A stretch of 64,000 nucleotides of DNA from Octopus vulgaris. Lineage: Eukaryota. The DNA is taken from assembly GCA_951406725.2 (NCBI GenBank), contig OX597824.1, positions 56,916,001-56,980,000 of the forward strand, read 5' to 3'. Of the stretch, positions 8,450 to 64,000 are shown one piece after another; the first letter of the stretch is position 1, and the number at the start of each line of letters is the position of its first letter. The position numbers and the translations under genes are program-made. The notes below the pieces were generated by a model. It was not told the DNA's origin, made no database searches, and saw only the letters and a list, made by a program, of their open reading frames with translations.

Positions 8450-8825
8450 TACTCTGCTAGTTCCTCAACAGTTACGGTGGGATTTTGTTCCACCAGGGTT
8501 TGCAGTACTGTTTTTTCTTCATTTGTATTGTTTTTTCTTCATTTGTATTGCTTTTACGTCCTGTTTTTGTCACTTGTTTTACCCCTCTGCAAAAGAATTT
8601 TATTTAATTCCTTTTGCAGGAAGGACTGCTTTGACTGTGTTCTGTCCTTACCTTCGAAACACACTTTGAATCGAACCAGGGACAACTGATGAAGGGGAAT
8701 TTTCCTTGTATTGTTTGTCCTGTACTCTGTTTTTTCGTTGTTTAAAAAAAGTCCGTTTCCTTGTTTGATTTTATGTTCTCGTCTCTCGTTGTGTTCTACG
8801 TTTATTTGTGGTGTCCTGTACTCAC
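8450..8825 (+). mobile_element. PLE-derived short element, family B (related deleted copy at ~15470-15630, minus strand)
   Basis: T-rich body ending at (CA)/(TA) microsatellite; carries hammerhead core strands; shares GAAAC..GAA(A/C)CAGGGA(C/G)AACTG and TGTCCTGTAC-like end with 15470-15630. Confidence 0.55.
8636..8697 (+). ncRNA. candidate non-circularly permuted hammerhead ribozyme (family B)
   Basis: TGTGT-T-CTGTCC ... CCTTC-GAA-ACACA ... GGACAA-CTGATGA-AGGGG; stem III TGTGT/ACACA, stem I TGTCC/GGACA, stem II GGGG/CTTC. Confidence 0.55.
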
Positions 8826-11490: not shown

Positions 11491-13140
11491 CAGTTGCGGC
11501 CCAAATGTTCAGAACGGCATTGTTTTTGTCAGAAAAGTAGATATAAGTTTTTATCAAAGTTGTTTTATATTCTATAATTTTCAGAGACAATAAATACAAT
11601 ATTAATTGGTATTGTCTGAGATTTTGATGTAATTTGAGTGGATAATACAAAAGTTATGGATGATATAGTGATTTACTGCAAAACCCATGGTAGCCAAAAT
11701 GATCAGAACGGTTGAAAAAATAACAAAATAATAAAAAATGACAGAGAATGCTGGAATTATTTCATATTTAGTTGTGAAGCCCTTTAGCTTCAATCAAACT
11801 TTGACATCTTTGACTGCATGAGGAAATTACATTTTCAATTTCTTGCTGGGTGATCTGATTCCATTCTTCCTGAAGGGCATTTCATAATTGCTCGGTTGTT
11901 TTAGGATTTCTGGCTTTCGAACGTTCTCCAGGAGACCTGGATGTTGTCTTTCCGACTCCAGCACATGTTTTCAATAGGATTGAAATCTGGGCTTTGAGCA
12001 AGCCAATCCATAATAATAACCTTTTCAGCCTTGAGGAAGTTCATGAGCGCCTTAGCCTTGTGACATGGGGCATTGTCCTGCATGAATATGGGTGGTCGCT
12101 TAGTTGAATTTCTCAGCACAGGCAAGCCATGATCTTTTACAAGTTGTTTATAAACTCCTGCATTTATCTTTCCATGTAATCGCACCAAAGGGCCCACACC
12201 ATCTCCAGATATCATCCCCCAAACCATGACACTTCCTCCACCGAATTTAACATTAGTCTTAAGGCATTTAGGCGACAATTTTTCACCTGCTTTTCGACGA
12301 ACGTACCTTTTCCCATCTGAGCCAAATAACATAGACTTAGATTCATCACTGAAATGCACCGTTTGCCATTTTTCTTGAGACCACAACACATGTTCGGTTG
12401 CAAAGGTAAGACGACACTTTTTATTCTTGGAGCTGATCAGTGGCTTCACTGCAGGTGCTCTTGCTTGTAGGTCATGTTCAACTAAACGACGAGACACAGT
12501 TTTTCGAGATAAAGTTTTCTTCAGTACAATGCTCATTTCTCGAGAAACAGCAGCAGCAGTTTTAAATCTAACCTGTTTAACCAACCTTACCATAGCACGA
12601 TCTTCTCTCTTGGTCGTTTTTCTTGGCCTACCTGTAGACTTTCTTGCTTCACACGAACCACAATTATCGTAGACCTTAAGAATACCGTGAACAACACTTT
12701 TTGACTTGTTAACAATCTTTGCAATAGACCCAATACTTAAATTATCCTTCTTTCGAAGCTTAATAATCTGCTGACGAATTGGTAACGGAGTAAGTGGCAT
12801 TATATTAACAAAATACACTGCAGATATTCTTACGGCGTGTTTAGTAAATGAACCTTCACGTAAACAAATTCAAAACATTAGAGTTCGCTGGTTAAATATA
12901 CTAAAACATGAAGTAAAGGCAACCATTCTGATCATTTTGGCCGCCATGGGTTTTGCAGTAAATCCTTAAATCATCCATAACTTTTGTATTATCCTCTCAA
13001 ATTACACCAAAATCTCAGACAATAACAAATAATATCGTATTTATTGTCTGTGAAAATTATAGAATATAAAACAACTTTGATAAAAAATTATATCTACTTT
13101 TCTGACGAAAATAATGCCGTTCTGAACATTTTGGCCGCAA

Positions 13141-18994: not shown

Positions 18995-19028
<34 letters not shown>

Positions 19029-19165
19029 AGAAAATAGTAAAGTGTGAAAAAACGACAGAAGGCTTAAATGTTAAAAAATATATATATTTGTGTCAAAATG
19101 TCTGGAGAATATTGGAAAAATTTTTTTTCCCTTTCCTTAAAATGACATAATTTAAAAATTTTTTA

Positions 19166-19205
19166 AAGAAATTACCGGTTTCGCGTGTAGCTTTTCAAAT
19201 TTCTT
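19166..19205 (-). ncRNA. minimal type I hammerhead, U3-A8 variant, in 3' pLTR
   Basis: AAGAAAT-TTGAAAA-GC TACAC GC-GAAA-CCGG-TA-ATTTCTT. Confidence 0.8.
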
Positions 19206-19261
19206 GTGACGTTATGTTTATATTGCATGGAATTATCGTTGTTTTTATTTCCAGGAGATTT

Positions 19262-21667
19262 CTAAATAAGGGGAGGTAGTGAGTGATTTTTTCCGGTGTA
19301 GGGGAGATAATCGCTTAAAAATTTTTTTTCCCTTTTCCTTGTTAATTTCTCCGTGTCAAGTATGTTCGGATGGTTGAGTCTGGGTTTGTACTTTTCAATG
19401 AAGAATGTTTCCTTGTTCAGTCTCATTTGTGTTGATGATCCGAAAGCACATTGGTAAAATGGGAAGATTAAAAATTGTGGCAGTAGTTGCTTTGCGCATT
19501 TCTCAATGTGCTCACTAAAAGGTATCATTCTATATTCTGGGAATGCAATCTGTTGTCGATGCAGTGTGCATCTGCGCCTGAGTGATAGTCCCGTGGAACC
19601 CACGTAGTCTTGGTGGCAGCCCGAGCATTTAATAACATAAATTATGTTTTCAGAGGCACAAGTAAAGTTAGATTTGATCTTAAATTTCTGTCCCTCTTTA
19701 AAGAAGAATTCTGATCCTTCCAATAGGTTAGGACATGTTGCACAGTTCGATCTACCACATTTTTTTACTTTTGCATCCGTAATTTTAGAAGACAATTTTG
19801 CCTTTGTGAGAATCTTTTTAAGTGATTTAGGCTGTTTGTAGCTTTTAATGATTTGGTGTATGTTTAGAATTTCCTTTAATTTTGGGTTTTTATGAAGTAT
19901 TGGTAAATTCTGGGTGATGATGGTGAAGGCTTCTTTGTTTCTGGGGTTGTATGTAGATATGTAAGGTAGTATTTTCGGGGAAGGTGTGTTGTTGTGTTGA
20001 ACTTTTCTTAAAGTTTCTATGTTGATTTCTGTTGCACGTCTGATCCCATCCTCTATGAGTTGAGCTGGGTAATGTCTGTCAATTAGGGTGTTTTTGAGTT
20101 CTTGCAGTCTAAAGTTCCTGGTATTTTGTTCTGACACTATTGTGCATATCCTTCTTGCAAGGTTGAAGGGGATGTTTGTTTTAGTGTGTCTTGGGTGGCA
20201 TGAATTAAAAAGAAGGTATTGTTTGGCGTCTGTGGCTTTGTAAAAAATGTCTGTTTCTATTTTAAGGTTAATTTTTTTAATTAGTACATCCAAGAACGGG
20301 AGCTCCTTTTGGTTGTATTCCATTGTGAACTGTATATTTGGGTTTATGCTGTTCAATAGGTTTTTAAATTTTAGGAGTTTATCTATGTTTTCATTCCAGA
20401 GAATGAAACAATCGTCTAGGAATCGTTTCCAATTCTCTTTTATGTATTGAGAGAGGGAGTTTCCAAAGATTGATAGAGATTCCTGGTAAATGATTATTTC
20501 CATGTATCCCATTGTTAAGTTCGCAATGACTGGTGCTGCCCTTGTACCCATAGCAATTCCGGATTTTTGACGGTAAAATGTATTGTCAAACATGAAGTGG
20601 TTATTGTGTAGGATGAATTCAATTGATTTAGTAATGAATTCCTTACTGATCCTTTTTGGTATTTCTTCCGGAAATTGGTCTAACCAGAATTGTATTGCCT
20701 CCAGTCCATAATTATGAGGTATACTGGTATACAAGTTGACTACATCAAATGAAACCAGGATTGTTTCTTCCTTGGTTTTTTTTGGAAGGTGGTTTAACAT
20801 ATCTAAGTCATCTCTGATATGGCTATCGATATGTTTAAGGAAGGGTTTCAAGAGGATGTCCATAAGTAGACTTAGTCTGTGTGTTTCACAGGTTGGGCCA
20901 GCTACAATGGGTCGTAGTTTTAGGTCCCCCGGATTAGGTGTGTGTATGTATGTCTTTGGTGATTTTTTAATGGTTTCATTTATAATTTGACTTTTATGAA
21001 TTTTTGGCAGACCATAGAAAAGGCTAGGTTTGCATTTAAAGTTTGTTAGGAAATCAATCTCTTTGGTTGTCAGTTCCTTTTCATGGGTTTTAATTAGTGA
21101 AGATAGAGTTTTCATTATTTTTTGTGGGGTGTAGTTGGTAATTTTTTCATAATGTAGGTCTTCATCAAGCAAGGAAATTACAAGATTTCTGTAGTATGAT
21201 GTATCCATTATTACAACTGCATTTCCCTTGTCCGCTTCCTTAATGGTTATATCTTCATCATTTTGGAGTTCTATCAGTTCTTTCCATTGTGTAGTGTTAA
21301 AATTTGGGTTAGTTTTCTGTTTATGTATAGTATGGTAGGGGAAGTTCTCAATGTGGTTACAGAATTCGTCAAGATCTTTATTTCTTCCTCTGTGTGGGAT
21401 GTGTTCACTTTTGTTCTTGACTAGTGATTCATCTTCAGTATTGAAACTGTTTGATGCTTCTGCTAGTCTTAATTTTCTGCAAAATTCTGTTACATTATCC
21501 TTGAGTTCATTTAGGTTTGCTCTGATTGGAGTTGGTGTAAATTTGAGCCCTTTTGCGAGGATGTCAATTTTTATGTTAGAAAGAGGTTTGGTTGAAAGAT
21601 TGATTATCTTCGGTTTTTCCTTATTACTAGGTTCCAGCCTGTGTCCTGGTGTCCCTGGTCCCTGGCT
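19262..21667 (-). CDS. PLE reverse transcriptase + Zn-finger linker + GIY-YIG endonuclease (frame open well upstream of first ATG at 21208)
   Basis: IINLS..KGLKF, ADKGNAVV, FYGLPKIHK, LRPIV, SFDVVNLYT, GIAMGT, RFLDD, LPFLD, CGRSNCATC, IIYVIKCSGC..YVGST; no stop from 21778 to 19262. Confidence 0.93.
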   Translation of the reverse strand, partial: SQGPGTPGHRLEPSNKEKPKIINLSTKPLSNIKIDILAKGLKFTPTPIRANLNELKDNVTEFCRKLRLAEASNSFNTEDESLVKNKSEHIPHRGRNKDLDEFCNHIENFPYHTIHKQKTNPNFNTTQWKELIELQNDEDITIKEADKGNAVVIMDTSYYRNLVISLLDEDLHYEKITNYTPQKIMKTLSSLIKTHEKELTTKEIDFLTNFKCKPSLFYGLPKIHKSQIINETIKKSPKTYIHTPNPGDLKLRPIVAGPTCETHRLSLLMDILLKPFLKHIDSHIRDDLDMLNHLPKKTKEETILVSFDVVNLYTSIPHNYGLEAIQFWLDQFPEEIPKRISKEFITKSIEFILHNNHFMFDNTFYRQKSGIAMGTRAAPVIANLTMGYMEIIIYQESLSIFGNSLSQYIKENWKRFLDDCFILWNENIDKLLKFKNLLNSINPNIQFTMEYNQKELPFLDVLIKKINLKIETDIFYKATDAKQYLLFNSCHPRHTKTNIPFNLARRICTIVSEQNTRNFRLQELKNTLIDRHYPAQLIEDGIRRATEINIETLRKVQHNNTPSPKILPYISTYNPRNKEAFTIITQNLPILHKNPKLKEILNIHQIIKSYKQPKSLKKILTKAKLSSKITDAKVKKCGRSNCATCPNLLEGSEFFFKEGQKFKIKSNFTCASENIIYVIKCSGCHQDYVGSTGLSLRRRCTLHRQQIAFPEYRMIPFSEHIEKCAKQLLPQFLIFPFYQCAFGSSTQMRLNKETFFIEKYKPRLNHPNILDTEKLTRKREKKFLSDYLPYTGKNHSLPPLI

Positions 21668-22215
21668 AAAAAATGTTGGGTGTAATTTTGTTTGTATGAG
21701 TTGTCTGTGAGGTTGTGTGGTATTTGGTCGGGGGAGTGGTGGTATTGTTGCCTCCGATCGTTGTGTGTGTGTGGGAATCTATGGTTGTTAATGCTTGTGG
21801 TGTGTGTAAAATTTCTGTATGGGGAATATTTTTGTTTCGAACTTCTTGTATGTGGGATGTTGCTTGACATAGTGTTTCTTTGCGTTTGTCTTGTGTTTAG
21901 TGGGGACCAGTAGTTTTGGTTCATGGGGTAGTAGTGATTTGTGTGTGGTGTATTTCTTATCCTAGTGTCGTATTGTGCTGTATGGTGGTTGGGTCTGGTA
22001 TTAGGATGTTGTTGGTTTGTTCTGTTTTTGGTGTAATTTCTTTCATAGACGCGTCCTCTTTCAGCTAGTTCCCTGTTAGGTCTAGCGTGGTTTGTAAAGG
22101 TTGGTTGTGGGTGATTTCTGTCTTTAGTGTATGGAGGATAGTTGGGGGTTGTTCGTGGGTTGTTAGGTTTTTCTTTTTTATTTATTGCAATTTTCTTAAG
22201 GAAGGGATTATTTGT
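21604..22215 (-). CDS. 3' part of PLE upstream ORF (N/H/R/T/P-rich), overlapping the RT frame; 5' end lost at the inversion junction
   Basis: Open frame of ~200 codons; the listed start codon lies in the inverted pLTR and is an artefact. Confidence 0.55.
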   Translation of the reverse strand, partial: TNNPFLKKIAINKKEKPNNPRTTPNYPPYTKDRNHPQPTFTNHARPNRELAERGRVYERNYTKNRTNQQHPNTRPNHHTAQYDTRIRNTPHTNHYYPMNQNYWSPLNTRQTQRNTMSSNIPHTRSSKQKYSPYRNFTHTTSINNHRFPHTHNDRRQQYHHSPDQIPHNLTDNSYKQNYTQHFLARDQGHQDTGWNLVIRKNRR

Positions 22216-22409
22216 ACCCAAAAGTACAAACCCAGACTCAACCATCCGAACATACTGACACAGAGAAATTAACAAGGAAAAGGGAAAAAAAAAATTTTAA
22301 GCGATTATCTCCCCTACACCGGAAAAAATCACTCACTACCTCCCCTTATTTAGAAATCTCCTGGAAATAAAAACAACGATAATTCCATGCAATATAAACA
22401 TAACGTCAC

Positions 22410-22449
22410 AAGAAATTTGAAAAGCTACACGCGAAACCGGTAATTTCTT
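22410..22449 (+). ncRNA. minimal type I hammerhead, U3-A8 variant, in inverted pLTR
   Basis: Identical inverted copy of 19166-19205. Confidence 0.8.
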
Positions 22450-22625
22450 TAAAAAATTTTAAAATTATGTCATTTTAAGGAAAGGGAAAAAAATTTTTCC
22501 AATATTCTCCAGACATTTTGACACAAATATATATATTTTTTAACATTTAAGCCTTCTGTCGTTTTTTCACACTTTACTATTTTCTTATATATTCACCCAC
22601 GTGCTTTACCAAACAAACTTTCTTA

Positions 22626-25203: not shown

Positions 25204-25240
25204 TGTTTCTGACGAAGAGCTCCGCTCGAAACGTTAAACA
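25204..25240 (+). ncRNA. minimal type I hammerhead in short PLE fragment (25148-25340)
   Basis: TGTTT-CTGACGA-A GAGC TCC GCTC-GAAA-CG-TT-AAACA; palindromic stem III ACGT. Confidence 0.8.
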
Positions 25241-32339: not shown

Positions 32340-32681
32340 CGTCATTGTAAATATAATTTTGGCGTTTGCTGAATTTTCTAGAGAACATTTCTTAGTGGCA
32401 AGACCATAGCGGATCTAGTTCTAGCATAAGAGTTGTCCACGTTGTGGTCATCCCTCTTATATGAATGTAATATACATACATACATACATACATACATACA
32501 TACATACATACATACATACATACATACATACATACGTAGGTAGTACATACATACATACATACATACATATTTCGTTTTCGTCTCTTGTATTTACATCCGT
32601 CTCGTGCGTTCACATTCCTGTCTTCTACCAAGAAATCTAATGCTTACAGCTTAGTTTTTTTCTTGGGGCTGGCCGAGTTGG

Positions 32682-32750
32682 AGCAAATATCAGAATTGAA
32701 CAGCCGAAATTTGCTATGATGATTCGGTGTCTGACTGAAGATTGAAGGCT
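32682..32750 (+). ncRNA. candidate non-circularly permuted hammerhead (family A, copy 1)
   Basis: AGCAAAT-A-TCAGA ... AGCC-GAA-ATTTGCT ... TCTGA-CTGAAGA-TTGAA-GGCT. Confidence 0.6.
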
Positions 32751-33388
32751 TCGAATGATTTGGTGTGTTCCGTGTTCGTCCCTTCCTGTATTTCACGTTC
32801 TTTATATATAAAAACATTTATTCTTATATTATTGCGGCGTTACGTGCACCCCCCCGTTTGTTTGTCCAATTTTAAACCCTGCACGACTTCTATACACTTT
32901 GTCTTTCCTACCCGCCATTGCTTCTTTACCAAACTATTTTGGCGCCCTCCGATTCTTGCGCCCTCCGATTCTTCCCCCCTCTTCCTCCCATCCTCCTTAA
33001 TCCCTTCTTTCTCCTTTTCTCTTAGTCACTGATTCTGTCCCCTGCCTTCCACCCTCTTTGATTCCCTCTCTCTCTGTCTCTCTTTCTCTCTCTCTCCTGC
33101 AACCTGCTGCTTCTTAACCATTCTGTTGGCGATCGTATCTCGACCAACATGTGTCCCCTCTACCGAAACGGTAATTATTTCTACGCCAGCTGCTATGTTG
33201 TTGTTGTTTTTGTCTCATTTGGTCTAAAGTCGTAAGACAACCATCGTTATATTTTGTTTATCCATTACTGTTTTCAATTTCGTTTTCGTCTCTTGTATTT
33301 ACATCCGTCTCGTGCGTTCACATTCCTGTCTTCTACCAAGAAATCTAATGCTTACAGCTTAGTTTTTTTCTTGGGCTGGCCGAGTTGG

Positions 33389-33457
33389 AGCAAATATCAG
33401 AATTGAACAGCCGAAATTTGCTATGATGATTCGGTGTCTGACTGAAGATTGAAGGCT
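33389..33457 (+). ncRNA. candidate non-circularly permuted hammerhead (family A, copy 2)
   Basis: Identical to 32682-32750. Confidence 0.6.
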
Positions 33458-33530
33458 TCGAATAATTTGTCTGTGTTCCGTGTTCGTCCCTTCCTGTATT
33501 TCACGTTCTTTATATATAAAAACATTTATT

Positions 33531-33596
<66 letters not shown>

Positions 33597-33844
33597 TTAG
33601 AAGAAATGAGGTACTCAGAAATCTGGATGGTTTTATATTTACAGATATTTATTAGTATATTACATGTTTTTATAAATCATATATCATATATTAGCACTTT
33701 CGTCCATTCTAGTGGAGTCTTCAAATTCAACTAACTTTTGCAGGAATTTTGACTCTTTTTATAGTATTATTGAGTGTGTAGGGGTAGCGAGAGATATAAG
33801 ATAGTACAAAAGGGTGAGGAATGGGGAGAAAGTTTAAGAGAGCA

Positions 33845-40060: not shown

Positions 40061-41340
40061 CGAGGGACGTTCAATAAGTAATGCCACTGATCCACTTTCA
40101 GTTGTTTGATCTAGCTGAAATTTTGCATGTGCAATTATTTATATCTCTATAGATTAAATAGCAAATTATAGCTCTGAACTAATTGTGGTGTCTGATTTAC
40201 AGGTGTTTGGACTGAGTCAAGTGTGAAATGTTGAGTGTCGAGCAGTGATCCGGTTTTTGTATTTGAATGGATGCTCACCACGGGAGACTTTTGATGAAAT
40301 GAAAGTAACTTATGGTGATGATGCCCCATCATATGACCTTGTAAAACGCTGGCATCGTGAATTCAAATATGGTCGGAACTCTGTGGAAACAGCTCCCAGA
40401 TCTGGTCGCCTCTCTTCTGCCATTGATGAGGCATCTGTCCGTCAAGTTGAGGCTGCCATTTTGGAAGATCGACGCATAACTATTCGCCAAATAGCCCATG
40501 AGGTCAAGATTAGTACCGGGTCTGTGGAAGCTATCATTCATGACCATTTGCATATGCAAAAGGTGTCTGCCAGATGGATTCCCAGGTTGCTCACACCTTT
40601 CCAGAAGCAAGAACGCGTCGAGTGCTCGAGGATGAATTTGGAGATGTGCCAAGAAGATGAGTCAAAATTTTTCAAAAGACTGATTACACAGGATGAAATC
40701 TGGGTCCATCACTATGATCCAGAGACCAAAGCCCAGTCAATGCAGTGGAAGCACCGTGACTCACCTCCTCCAAAGAAGGCAAGGGTGCAGCCCTCCGCTG
40801 ACAAGGTCATGCTCCCAGTCTTCTGGGACCAGGACGGAGTAGTGATGACAGATTTCCTGGCAAAGGCTACCACAATTACAGGAGCCTATTATGCTTCACT
40901 TCTGAGGAAATTAAGAGAAGCTATCAAAATCAAGAGGGGGGCAAGATCAGCAAAGGCATCCTCCTGCAGGACAACGCTCCGGTCCACAACTCGCGTGTCA
41001 CCAGATCAGAAGCACAGGCGTGCGGCTATGAACTCCTTCTCCATCCCCCTACTCTCCTGACCTTGCACCCTCTGATCTCACCTCTTCCCAGCCATGAAGT
41101 TGTTTTTGAAAGGAAAGCGTTTCCCAGATGATGCAGCCTTGATTTCTGAAGTCACGTCGTGGCTGGAGGACCAAGCTGGGATCTTCTACAAAAACGGTCT
41201 CCAGAGCTGCATCAAACAATGGGAGAAATGCATAACTCTGGGTGGTTCCCATGTAGAAAAAGAATAATAACTGTGCCAAGTTTCGTTGCTCTACTGCTAT
41301 GGGGAGTGGGTCAGGGGCATTACTTATTGAACGCCCCTCG
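40061..41340 (+). mobile_element. full-length mariner element (irritans-like), transposase frameshifted
   Basis: TA|CGAGGGACGTTCAATAAGTAATGCC...GGCATTACTTATTGAACGCCCCTCG|TA; WIPRLL, TQDEIW, then QDNA and YSPDLAPSD in a shifted frame. Confidence 0.95.
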
Positions 41341-47614: not shown

Positions 47615-47895
<281 letters not shown>

Positions 47896-63600: not shown

Positions 63601-63662
<62 letters not shown>

Positions 63663-64000
63663 TATAATATTAATTCGAGACAAAACCACTATTTTGCAAA
63701 ACAAACAAGGAAAGACTTAATCAATACATAAAAATTTTAATATAAAGTAAATAAACCGCCACTACAATTGTTTCATGTCTTCAAATGACATTCGTCAGGT
63801 GGATTTCCGATCTTCTAATCAGTTTGAAGACATGAAACAATTGTAGTGGCGGTTTATTTACTTTATATTAAAATTTTTATGTATTGATTAAGTCTTTCCT
63901 TGTTTGTTTTGCAAAATAGTGGTTTTGTCTCGAATTAATATTATATAATATTTTACTATAAAATTGGATTTAATCCTACATCTGATTTTTTCCCTGTAAA
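63390..64000. mobile_element. two fold-back (inverted) PLE pLTR fragments around a (TA)n tract
   Basis: Arms 63461-63526/63545-63610 and 63661-63785/63823-63947; shared tail at 63390-63460 and 63948-64000. Confidence 0.8.
63759..63802 (-). ncRNA. type I hammerhead
   Basis: CCAC-CTGACGA-ATGTC ATTTGAA GACAT-GAAA-CAATTG-TA-GTGG. Confidence 0.9.

Follow-up and report, generated by a model that had tools for sequence, protein, structure and literature searches.

This analysis focused on an element at 32568..33537 (+) of the window, the window being the whole stretch of 64,000 nucleotides of Octopus vulgaris DNA that was analysed. The element belongs to family A and comprises 1.37 tandem units of a 707-nt non-coding monomer inserted in (TA)n. 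It is 5'-truncated, and its 3' end is fixed at a (TA)n target (33533..33597, +) about 140 nt 3' of the predicted cut. The 5' flank is an (ATAC)n microsatellite (32472..32567, +, by repeat annotation, with the array extending to 32569), the 3' flank is (TA)n, and the direct repeat within the element is 261–262 nt long with 98.5% identity. Motifs listed in the first-pass annotation are where it placed them, with GAAA at 32706–32709, CUGAAGA at 32735–32741 and 33442–33448, and predicted cuts after A32689 and A33396. These cuts lie 707 nt apart and bound the monomer proposed there (32690..33396, +), which is 43% GC and 67% pyrimidine and has no coding capacity, its longest sense ATG ORF being 28 aa.

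In every unit the hammerhead core is complete, with the cut site first, then GAAA and then CUGANGA. The first-pass annotation had placed this layout outside types I–III, which holds, and the same order has been published as type SGC and validated in vitro (Eckert et al. 2023, in the portion available of PMC10085705). From its 5' side, the ribozyme region of the first unit (all on the + strand) starts with a pyrimidine tract, X (32655..32662), which may pair with the strand that exits the core to form an optional closing helix. It is followed by U (GGCUG, 32667..32671), the likely 5' strand of stem II, which pairs with 32701–32705 and in which G10.1 would be 32667, core positions being numbered here in the hammerhead convention. 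Directly 3' of U is the strand P0' (32672..32679), which pairs with 32721–32728 and is the counterpart of the SGC helix linking stems I and II, and then the predicted non-bulged strand of a kink-turn (G3n, G2n, A1n; 32680..32682). Block S (32683..32694) holds a stem III strand (32683–32688), H17 (A32689) and a stem I strand (32690–32694), and block G (32701..32714) holds M (CAGCC, 32701–32705), GAA (32706–32708) and the other stem III strand (32709–32714). The next stretch (32715..32728) supplies the kink-turn bulge (32715–32717), G1b, A2b and U3b (32718–32720) and the P0 strand (32721–32728). The second stem I strand (32730–32734) and the CUGAAGA core (32735–32741) together occupy 32730..32741, and D, the strand leaving the core, which contains the five nucleotides earlier read as an insertion followed by GGCU, occupies 32742..32750. 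A second ribozyme copy lies at 33362..33457 (+), with U at 33374, its predicted cut after 33396 and its core at 33442–33448.

The window contains three members in all, one each of families A, B and C. The family B ribozyme (8609..8701, +) has U (GAAGG) at 8620–8624, H17 at 8641, M at 8651–8655 and the core at 8686–8692; the same layout had been claimed for it earlier and is confirmed, although in the window copy the first stem I pair is broken by G>A at 8685. The family C relative (47755..47895, –) is about 140 nt long, 5'-truncated about 6 nt past its predicted cut, and ends 3' in (AT)n. Elsewhere in the window, a minimal type I hammerhead motif of conventional order (CUGACGA ... GAAAC-GUU) is present at 25209–25238 (+) within another short repeat, the end of which is (TA)n. 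Two transposase frames, which we take to be Tc1/mariner-like, lie at 11901–12869 (–, 322 aa), between 328-nt inverted arms, and at 40227–41060 (+, 277 aa). There is also a long GCT/GCC trinucleotide-based repeat at 24–1751, giving poly-Ala/Ser/Gly frames, and a perfect 125-nt inverted repeat with a 37-nt spacer at 63661–63947.

Related families are abundant in the genome, which is 2.8 Gb in size and rich in microsatellites. Exact patterns containing both core blocks recovered about 10,000 core-bearing copies: the A/C-group pattern had 4,226 matches, against none for its reversed control, and two mutually exclusive B-group patterns had 2,117 and 3,717, against 0 and 2. Unit lengths are 693–707 nt in A, 769–780 nt in C and 765 nt in B, and the spacings between matches suggest units of about 650–930 nt in other subfamilies, while the monomer bodies of different groups share only patchy similarity. 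A search with the family A ribozyme region gave 1,644 initial candidates, and insertion anatomy was followed in 30 loci representing 28 independent insertions. The 3' end lies at (TA)n about 140 nt past the predicted cut in 25 of the 28 by pattern, and in one more at the overlapping locus L026, whereas the 5' ends are scattered across the unit and arrays reach up to four units. Such a combination indicates a partial tandem rather than an LTR pair, so that the repeat-body-repeat description given earlier is retained as regards the repeats themselves but not as an LTR-like structure: with one end fixed and the other variable, the length of the repeat is incidental. A tail of about 30 nt is present at the 3' end in 2 of the 28 insertions. 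Palindromic 5' junctions and inverted element pairs were also seen, several of them at or near the ribozyme (loci L067/L083, L142/L143, L145 and L211/L212). Other subfamily variants, with differing stem I strands, occur in public runs X2 and X17, which carry two organism labels, with loose ends at window position 32675.

A descriptor covering all six permutations, run on the window and 400 kb of evenly spaced genome sequence, returned five SGC matches, one of which was a poly-T artefact, and a single GCS artefact; five shuffled sets gave no SGC match. An Rfam scan of the element found no hammerhead, the only hit being a weak one to the sR5 snoRNA (E 0.23) that arose from AUGAUGA/CUGA k-turn-like words. 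Pseudoknot-free minimum free energy folding of single sequences gave z-scores of about –0.2 to –0.6, which are not significant; such folding is uninformative for pseudoknots.

The non-circularly permuted order of the core is supported both by the exact-pattern matches set against reversed controls and by covariation of stems I and III across subfamilies, a check that the first-pass annotation had proposed. Alignments were made of 24 A/C-group and 30 B-group natural copies, hand-picked from 120 distinct contexts to span subfamilies, with 5'-truncated copies left out. Two-sided changes are found in 12 of 30 pairs in the A/C set and 17 of 29 in the B set, counted per sequence and therefore not phylogenetically independent. 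They affect 4/6 stem I pairs and 2/7 stem III pairs in A/C, and 5/6 and 4/6, respectively, in B. The model helices are 90–92% paired, compared with 23–56% in slid controls. Since the search patterns demanded CUGANGA and GAAA, only the NUH triplet and N7 are independent tests of the core: U16.1 and A15.1 are invariant, all aligned copies (24/24 and 30/30) have A, C or U at H17, G being absent there, and N7 is variable. Two details of the earlier fold need revision. Stem III is 6 bp rather than 7: just 5 of 24 relatives form the seventh pair, the bases of which are part of the kink-turn pattern. The long extension of a stem I given as 5–11 bp is better explained by helix P0. A type III reading that uses a downstream GAA (32752) was also tried and rejected, because what follows that GAA is not the same from family to family and the GAA itself is missing from B.

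Helix P0 joins the strand 5' of the first stem III strand to the strand just before stem I, and shows two-sided changes at 5/7 pairs in A/C and 6/6 in B. In a permuted position, P0 takes the place of the type-SGC helix that links stems I and II at their far ends. Between P0 and stem III, 22 of the 24 A/C copies have a 3-nt bulge of variable sequence and then GA opposite GA, which at the sequence level matches the definition of a kink-turn as a 3-nt bulge followed by tandem G-A and A-G pairs between two helices (as given in the accessible part of PMC5435971). Position 3n is G in 19 of the 24, and kink-turns with 3n = G are described, in the available section of PMC4382518, as a class that folds in metal ions alone. 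The kink-turn of the A/C group is a consensus match and its kinked fold a prediction. A canonical kink-turn is not conserved in B, where even a loose test picked out only 8 of 30 copies and the position is taken by a purine-rich asymmetric loop.

The identity of stem II is the point at which readings diverge most. The first-pass annotation had formed it from AGCC and GGCU after a 5-nt insertion, that is, from M and the downstream strand D, and had listed the pairing of upstream GGCTG with CAGCC as a fold that would speak against the ribozyme. The latter is instead most likely the real stem II. U is a 5-nt strand that is a 5-bp Watson-Crick partner of M in both groups; the pairing is 97% in A/C and 100% in B even though its sequence differs between them (GGCUG:CAGCC and GAAGG:CCUUC), and it opens with a G-C pair in 23/24 and 29/30 copies, so that G10.1 would be supplied by the upstream strand. 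A sixth U:M pair covaries in B (C-G in 4 and A-U in 5 of 30). Subfamily E is especially informative: the downstream GG is absent from all 24 pattern matches, and among the 16 copies with intact upstream sequence (of 24 loci, 4 being set aside as truncated and 4 for having no GAAA in place) at least four of the five U:M pairs are kept in 15, and the first two M:D pairs in none. Since E keeps U:M without the downstream GGCU, D is not needed as part of stem II there, although E is a small subfamily of 24 matches whose copies have decayed further. Helix energies favour U:M, together with X:D, in 54 of 54 sequences. Within groups, covariation of U:M is almost nil, the sole two-sided change being in a decayed copy (L230), and its support comes from the one between-group change, from subfamily E and from the sixth pair. 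From these comparisons we consider it probable that stem II uses the upstream GGCUG strand. With that strand in place the weak point of the 5-nt insertion disappears, and the insertion is likely to have been a misreading. The strand after A9 may instead pair with upstream X, where changes occur on one side only in the A/C alignment, form a local hairpin, or do nothing.

A plain type-SGC ribozyme, with stem II formed by AGCC:GGCU after a bulge of 5 nt (1 nt in B) and the upstream GGCUG acting as an off-switch or a bystander, is an unlikely alternative. In its favour, the M:D pairing is available to 18 of 24 A/C copies and, with many G-U pairs, to 99% of B cells, it keeps G10.1-C11.1, and the base directly after CUGANGA varies as a bulge would; a viroid hammerhead also offers a precedent for a one-nucleotide core insertion. 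However, M:D is lost in E, the ends of which still fall at the cut, it is energetically the weaker pairing in every one of the sequences compared, and it leaves a near-invariant U unexplained. Its companion helix, in which P0 would pair with downstream UCGAAU, was rejected because it shows no covariation (228 of 500 shuffles scored equally high). The gap from CUGANGA to the downstream strand is 5 nt at best in A/C and 1 nt in B, and the alignments in the accessible part of Eckert et al. (PMC10085705) have no insertion of more than 1–2 nt at that place. An intact block C with a stem II strand within 1–2 nt of CUGANGA, as strict type SGC would have it, is therefore formally possible in B but is not found in A/C, and E has no downstream partner at all.

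Competing folds do exist, since U has a downstream partner as well in both groups and RNAalifold chooses U:D for A/C. It could be speculated that the RNA is a two-state switch forming U:M or M:D according to context (precursor, cut monomer or circle), or that folding requires help from a PLE protein or, in trans, from another unit. Family A retains both sets of partners, there are several mutual complementarities among U, M and D, and a protein-assisted hammerhead has a precedent in Penelope-like elements, or PLEs (in the part available of PMC11167929). B loci add the observation that the trinucleotide preceding U could base-pair with the core CUG in 29–30 of 30 copies per pair, a possible off-state. 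Against this, M:D is dispensable, as E shows, all of the helices can form inside one unit, and the CAG:CUG pairing in B varies by transitions only, a kind of change that keeps such pairs by chance. A switch of this kind appears improbable, even more so than a downstream stem II, and an upstream U:M stem II is retained in what follows.

If the RNA is cut in vivo, reverse transcription of the cut RNA should leave insertions with 5' ends that stop at the cut, and the genome carries such a footprint. In A/C, 24 of 28 (TA)n junctions, distinct loci among the matches listed, lie at +1 to +12 (6 of them at +1), with four at –11 to –15 and none at –1 to –10, and in B 22 of 27 are 3' of the cut, again among the matches listed; both tallies were made by hand with an uncertainty of 2–3 nt. 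Genome-wide, 860 reverse-strand junctions fall in a 30-nt window containing the cut, and 93 in an equal control window, the control being inside the 3' half of the ribozyme and having different anchors, and forward counts being inflated by repeated starts. Altogether, the pile-up just after the predicted cut is about 8–9-fold over controls. Of 90 loci taken in genome order, 87 could be classified, and 22 ends were at +1 to +14, 14 at –1 to –70 and 51 further upstream, an excess at +1 to +14 with a binomial p of 2.6e-9 under a uniform rate, given that a few placements are off and overlapping loci were counted separately. In two copies of E the 5' part is an inverted piece, which starts at +1 of the cut in one and at 0 in the other, so that the RNA of E also appears to be cut in spite of lacking the downstream GGCU. 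Some of the pile-up may come from AT microhomology at +4 to +10, which does not explain the ends at +1.

The cut position predicted earlier is thus supported by genomic 5' ends just 3' of the A32689-equivalent site. The pile-up is likely to be the footprint of cleavage in vivo, and it is very probable that the hammerhead cuts at this site. An inactive element, that is, a protein-binding or RT-stalling structure that merely resembles a hammerhead, might be invoked from the lack of an Rfam match and from the ability of structure to stall RT. We regard this as highly improbable, because H17 and N7 show exactly the degeneracy of a hammerhead, the ends of E fall at the cut, and the pile-up steps at the scissile bond itself, with the gap just upstream noted among the matches listed and a low rate in the structured 3' part.

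Comparison of the natural copies suggests a fold that would run, 5' to 3', X, U, P0', kink-turn strand, first stem III strand, cut, first stem I strand, linker, M, GAA, second stem III strand, kink-turn bulge, P0, second stem I strand, CUGANGA and D. Stem II would be U:M, and the kink-turn would bend P0 back from stem III so that the distal end of P0 touches those of stems I and II, a contact that would replace the usual one between loops I and II. The chain would leave the core after A9. If the last segment of HRIMA-1, a type-SGC hammerhead, is moved to the front, exactly the observed order results, and the fold may therefore be seen as a type-SGC ribozyme circularly permuted and opened at the A9/G10.1 bond. 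As for the life cycle, tandem transcripts, their transcription being assumed, would be cut to monomers of about 707 nt at the site backed by the genomic footprint, and some monomers may re-ligate into circles. A PLE endonuclease/RT would then nick (TA)n and prime internally at an AU-rich site about 140 nt past the cut; cut templates would give short copies ending at the cut, and circles or uncut multimers longer partial tandems such as the window element.

Copying by a Penelope-type RT, as first proposed, is supported by insertion anatomy. Partial tandems, 5' truncation, inversions, a tail and a (TA)n target are all found here, and partial tandems, inversions, 30–40-nt tails and (TA)n targets are traits of PLEs (in the text available of PMC8557442). 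According to the accessible part of PMC11167929, the PLE RT nicks AT-rich DNA and starts within its own RNA, which fits the fixed start 140 nt past the cut. A point against the model is that, in the same text, a PLE hammerhead was dispensable for insertion in vitro. About one quarter of the sampled copies are short and stop at the cut. The other three quarters or so cross an intact junction, and their templates would thus have been circles or uncut multimers. When units of a single locus were compared over 185 nt, 11 of 12 pairs were free of substitutions, the median between loci being 2; the three full units of L026 differ by 1–3, where the corresponding median is 13. Such a pattern is compatible with one template having been copied repeatedly, although not only with that. 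Run X17 contains one 749-nt contig with a 30-nt terminal overlap that spans the monomer, which fits a circle, but tandem DNA or tandem RNA would give such a contig as well. A public-run contig joint described as "goes back 709" lies in a duplicated stretch and not at the cut. Taken together, it is fairly probable that the element is a tandem retroelement without coding capacity, which a PLE RT likely copies, with one multiply pseudoknotted hammerhead per unit that likely self-cleaves after A32689 and A33396 and has an upstream stem II.

The window itself carries a PLE (19016–22592, –) with an intact ORF that includes RVT_1 (19262–21778), but it was rejected as the direct partner. It shares the (TA)n target and no sequence, as comparison with the monomer showed no similarity (score 31, shuffled mean 34) and its 3' UTR contains no CUGANGA. 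In 4 of the 28 family A loci this PLE is adjacent, via (TA)n tracts or unrelated DNA. The octopus Naiad family Naiad_Ovul, which prefers (TA)n and is flagged HHR_half_core in the supplement of PMC8557442 as available, is a possible autonomous element with this ribozyme layout.

A search of the accessible literature found no report of an SGC-order, block-split or kink-turn hammerhead in an animal genome, and in the literature searched the term "type-SGC" was used only in PMC10085705. Hammerhead variants "containing additional helices" are mentioned in the part available of PMC13725137, which cites a 2015 paper. We lean towards the view that the octopus ribozyme represents a seventh hammerhead topology, SGC-type and multiply pseudoknotted, with a block split at A9/G10.1 and a natural kink-turn, that among non-circularly permuted ribozymes it is the first from a cellular genome, that it drives a retrozyme superfamily of some 10,000 copies invisible to type I–III descriptors, and that it may be the missing ribozyme of the "hammerhead-less" Penelope clades. 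If so, non-circularly permuted ribozymes would move from rare metatranscriptome RNAs to an animal genome at very high copy, and the host, the copies and an in vivo footprint would come with the ribozyme. The six-permutation scheme assumes, in the section available of PMC10085705, that CUGANGA and the adjacent stem strands are never more than 1–2 nt apart; the split layout breaks this block rule, so that type I–III hammerhead and retrozyme censuses would miss a class. Penelope clades that have "half cores" but reportedly no hammerheads could be tested directly for this layout, and a kink-turn in a natural hammerhead would be a possible protein-controlled handle on cleavage.

Type SGC is among the closest known systems. 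HRIMA-1 (PMC10085705, in the part accessible) shares the block order, the full core, a short linker between stems I and II, a fourth helix after the stem II 5' strand and before the stem I 5' strand, and the same helix connectivity. It differs in that the stem II 5' strand and the fourth-helix strand follow CUGANGA, whereas in the octopus element both are upstream of the cut, and in that the octopus element has a kink-turn pattern between stem III and the fourth helix. SGC RNAs are known from metatranscriptomes, with none in the genomes of known organisms according to the same portion of that source, and here there are about 10,000 DNA copies in an animal genome. Plant LTR retrozymes are similar in being about 700 nt from cut to cut, but have type III hammerheads in their LTRs; the octopus element has no true LTRs and no type III motif, and both its 5' ends, across the unit, and its repeat length vary by copy. 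PLE clades with (TA)n targets, Neptune and Naiad, share partial tandems, 5' truncation, inversions, a 30–40-nt tail, (TA)n and a ribozyme near the 3' end (PMC8557442, as far as available). Canonical PLE hammerheads are minimal type I, however, and the octopus element has no ORF and no sequence link to the one PLE tested; Naiads, in the same available text, have no canonical hammerheads, some being flagged HHR_half_core. Animal non-LTR retrozymes are likewise non-coding tandem units with one hammerhead each, dispersed at high copy and with a proposed dependence on PLEs (PMC7229834; bioRxiv 10.64898/2026.07.22.740005; both as available). Their hammerheads are type I and their units 150–450 bp (available part of PMC7229834), whereas the octopus element has the knotted SGC order, units of about 650–930 nt, and short partial tandems in (TA)n. 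The family is real, abundant and retrozyme-like, and behaves as a non-LTR retrozyme but conforms neither to the type I retrozymes nor to strict type SGC.
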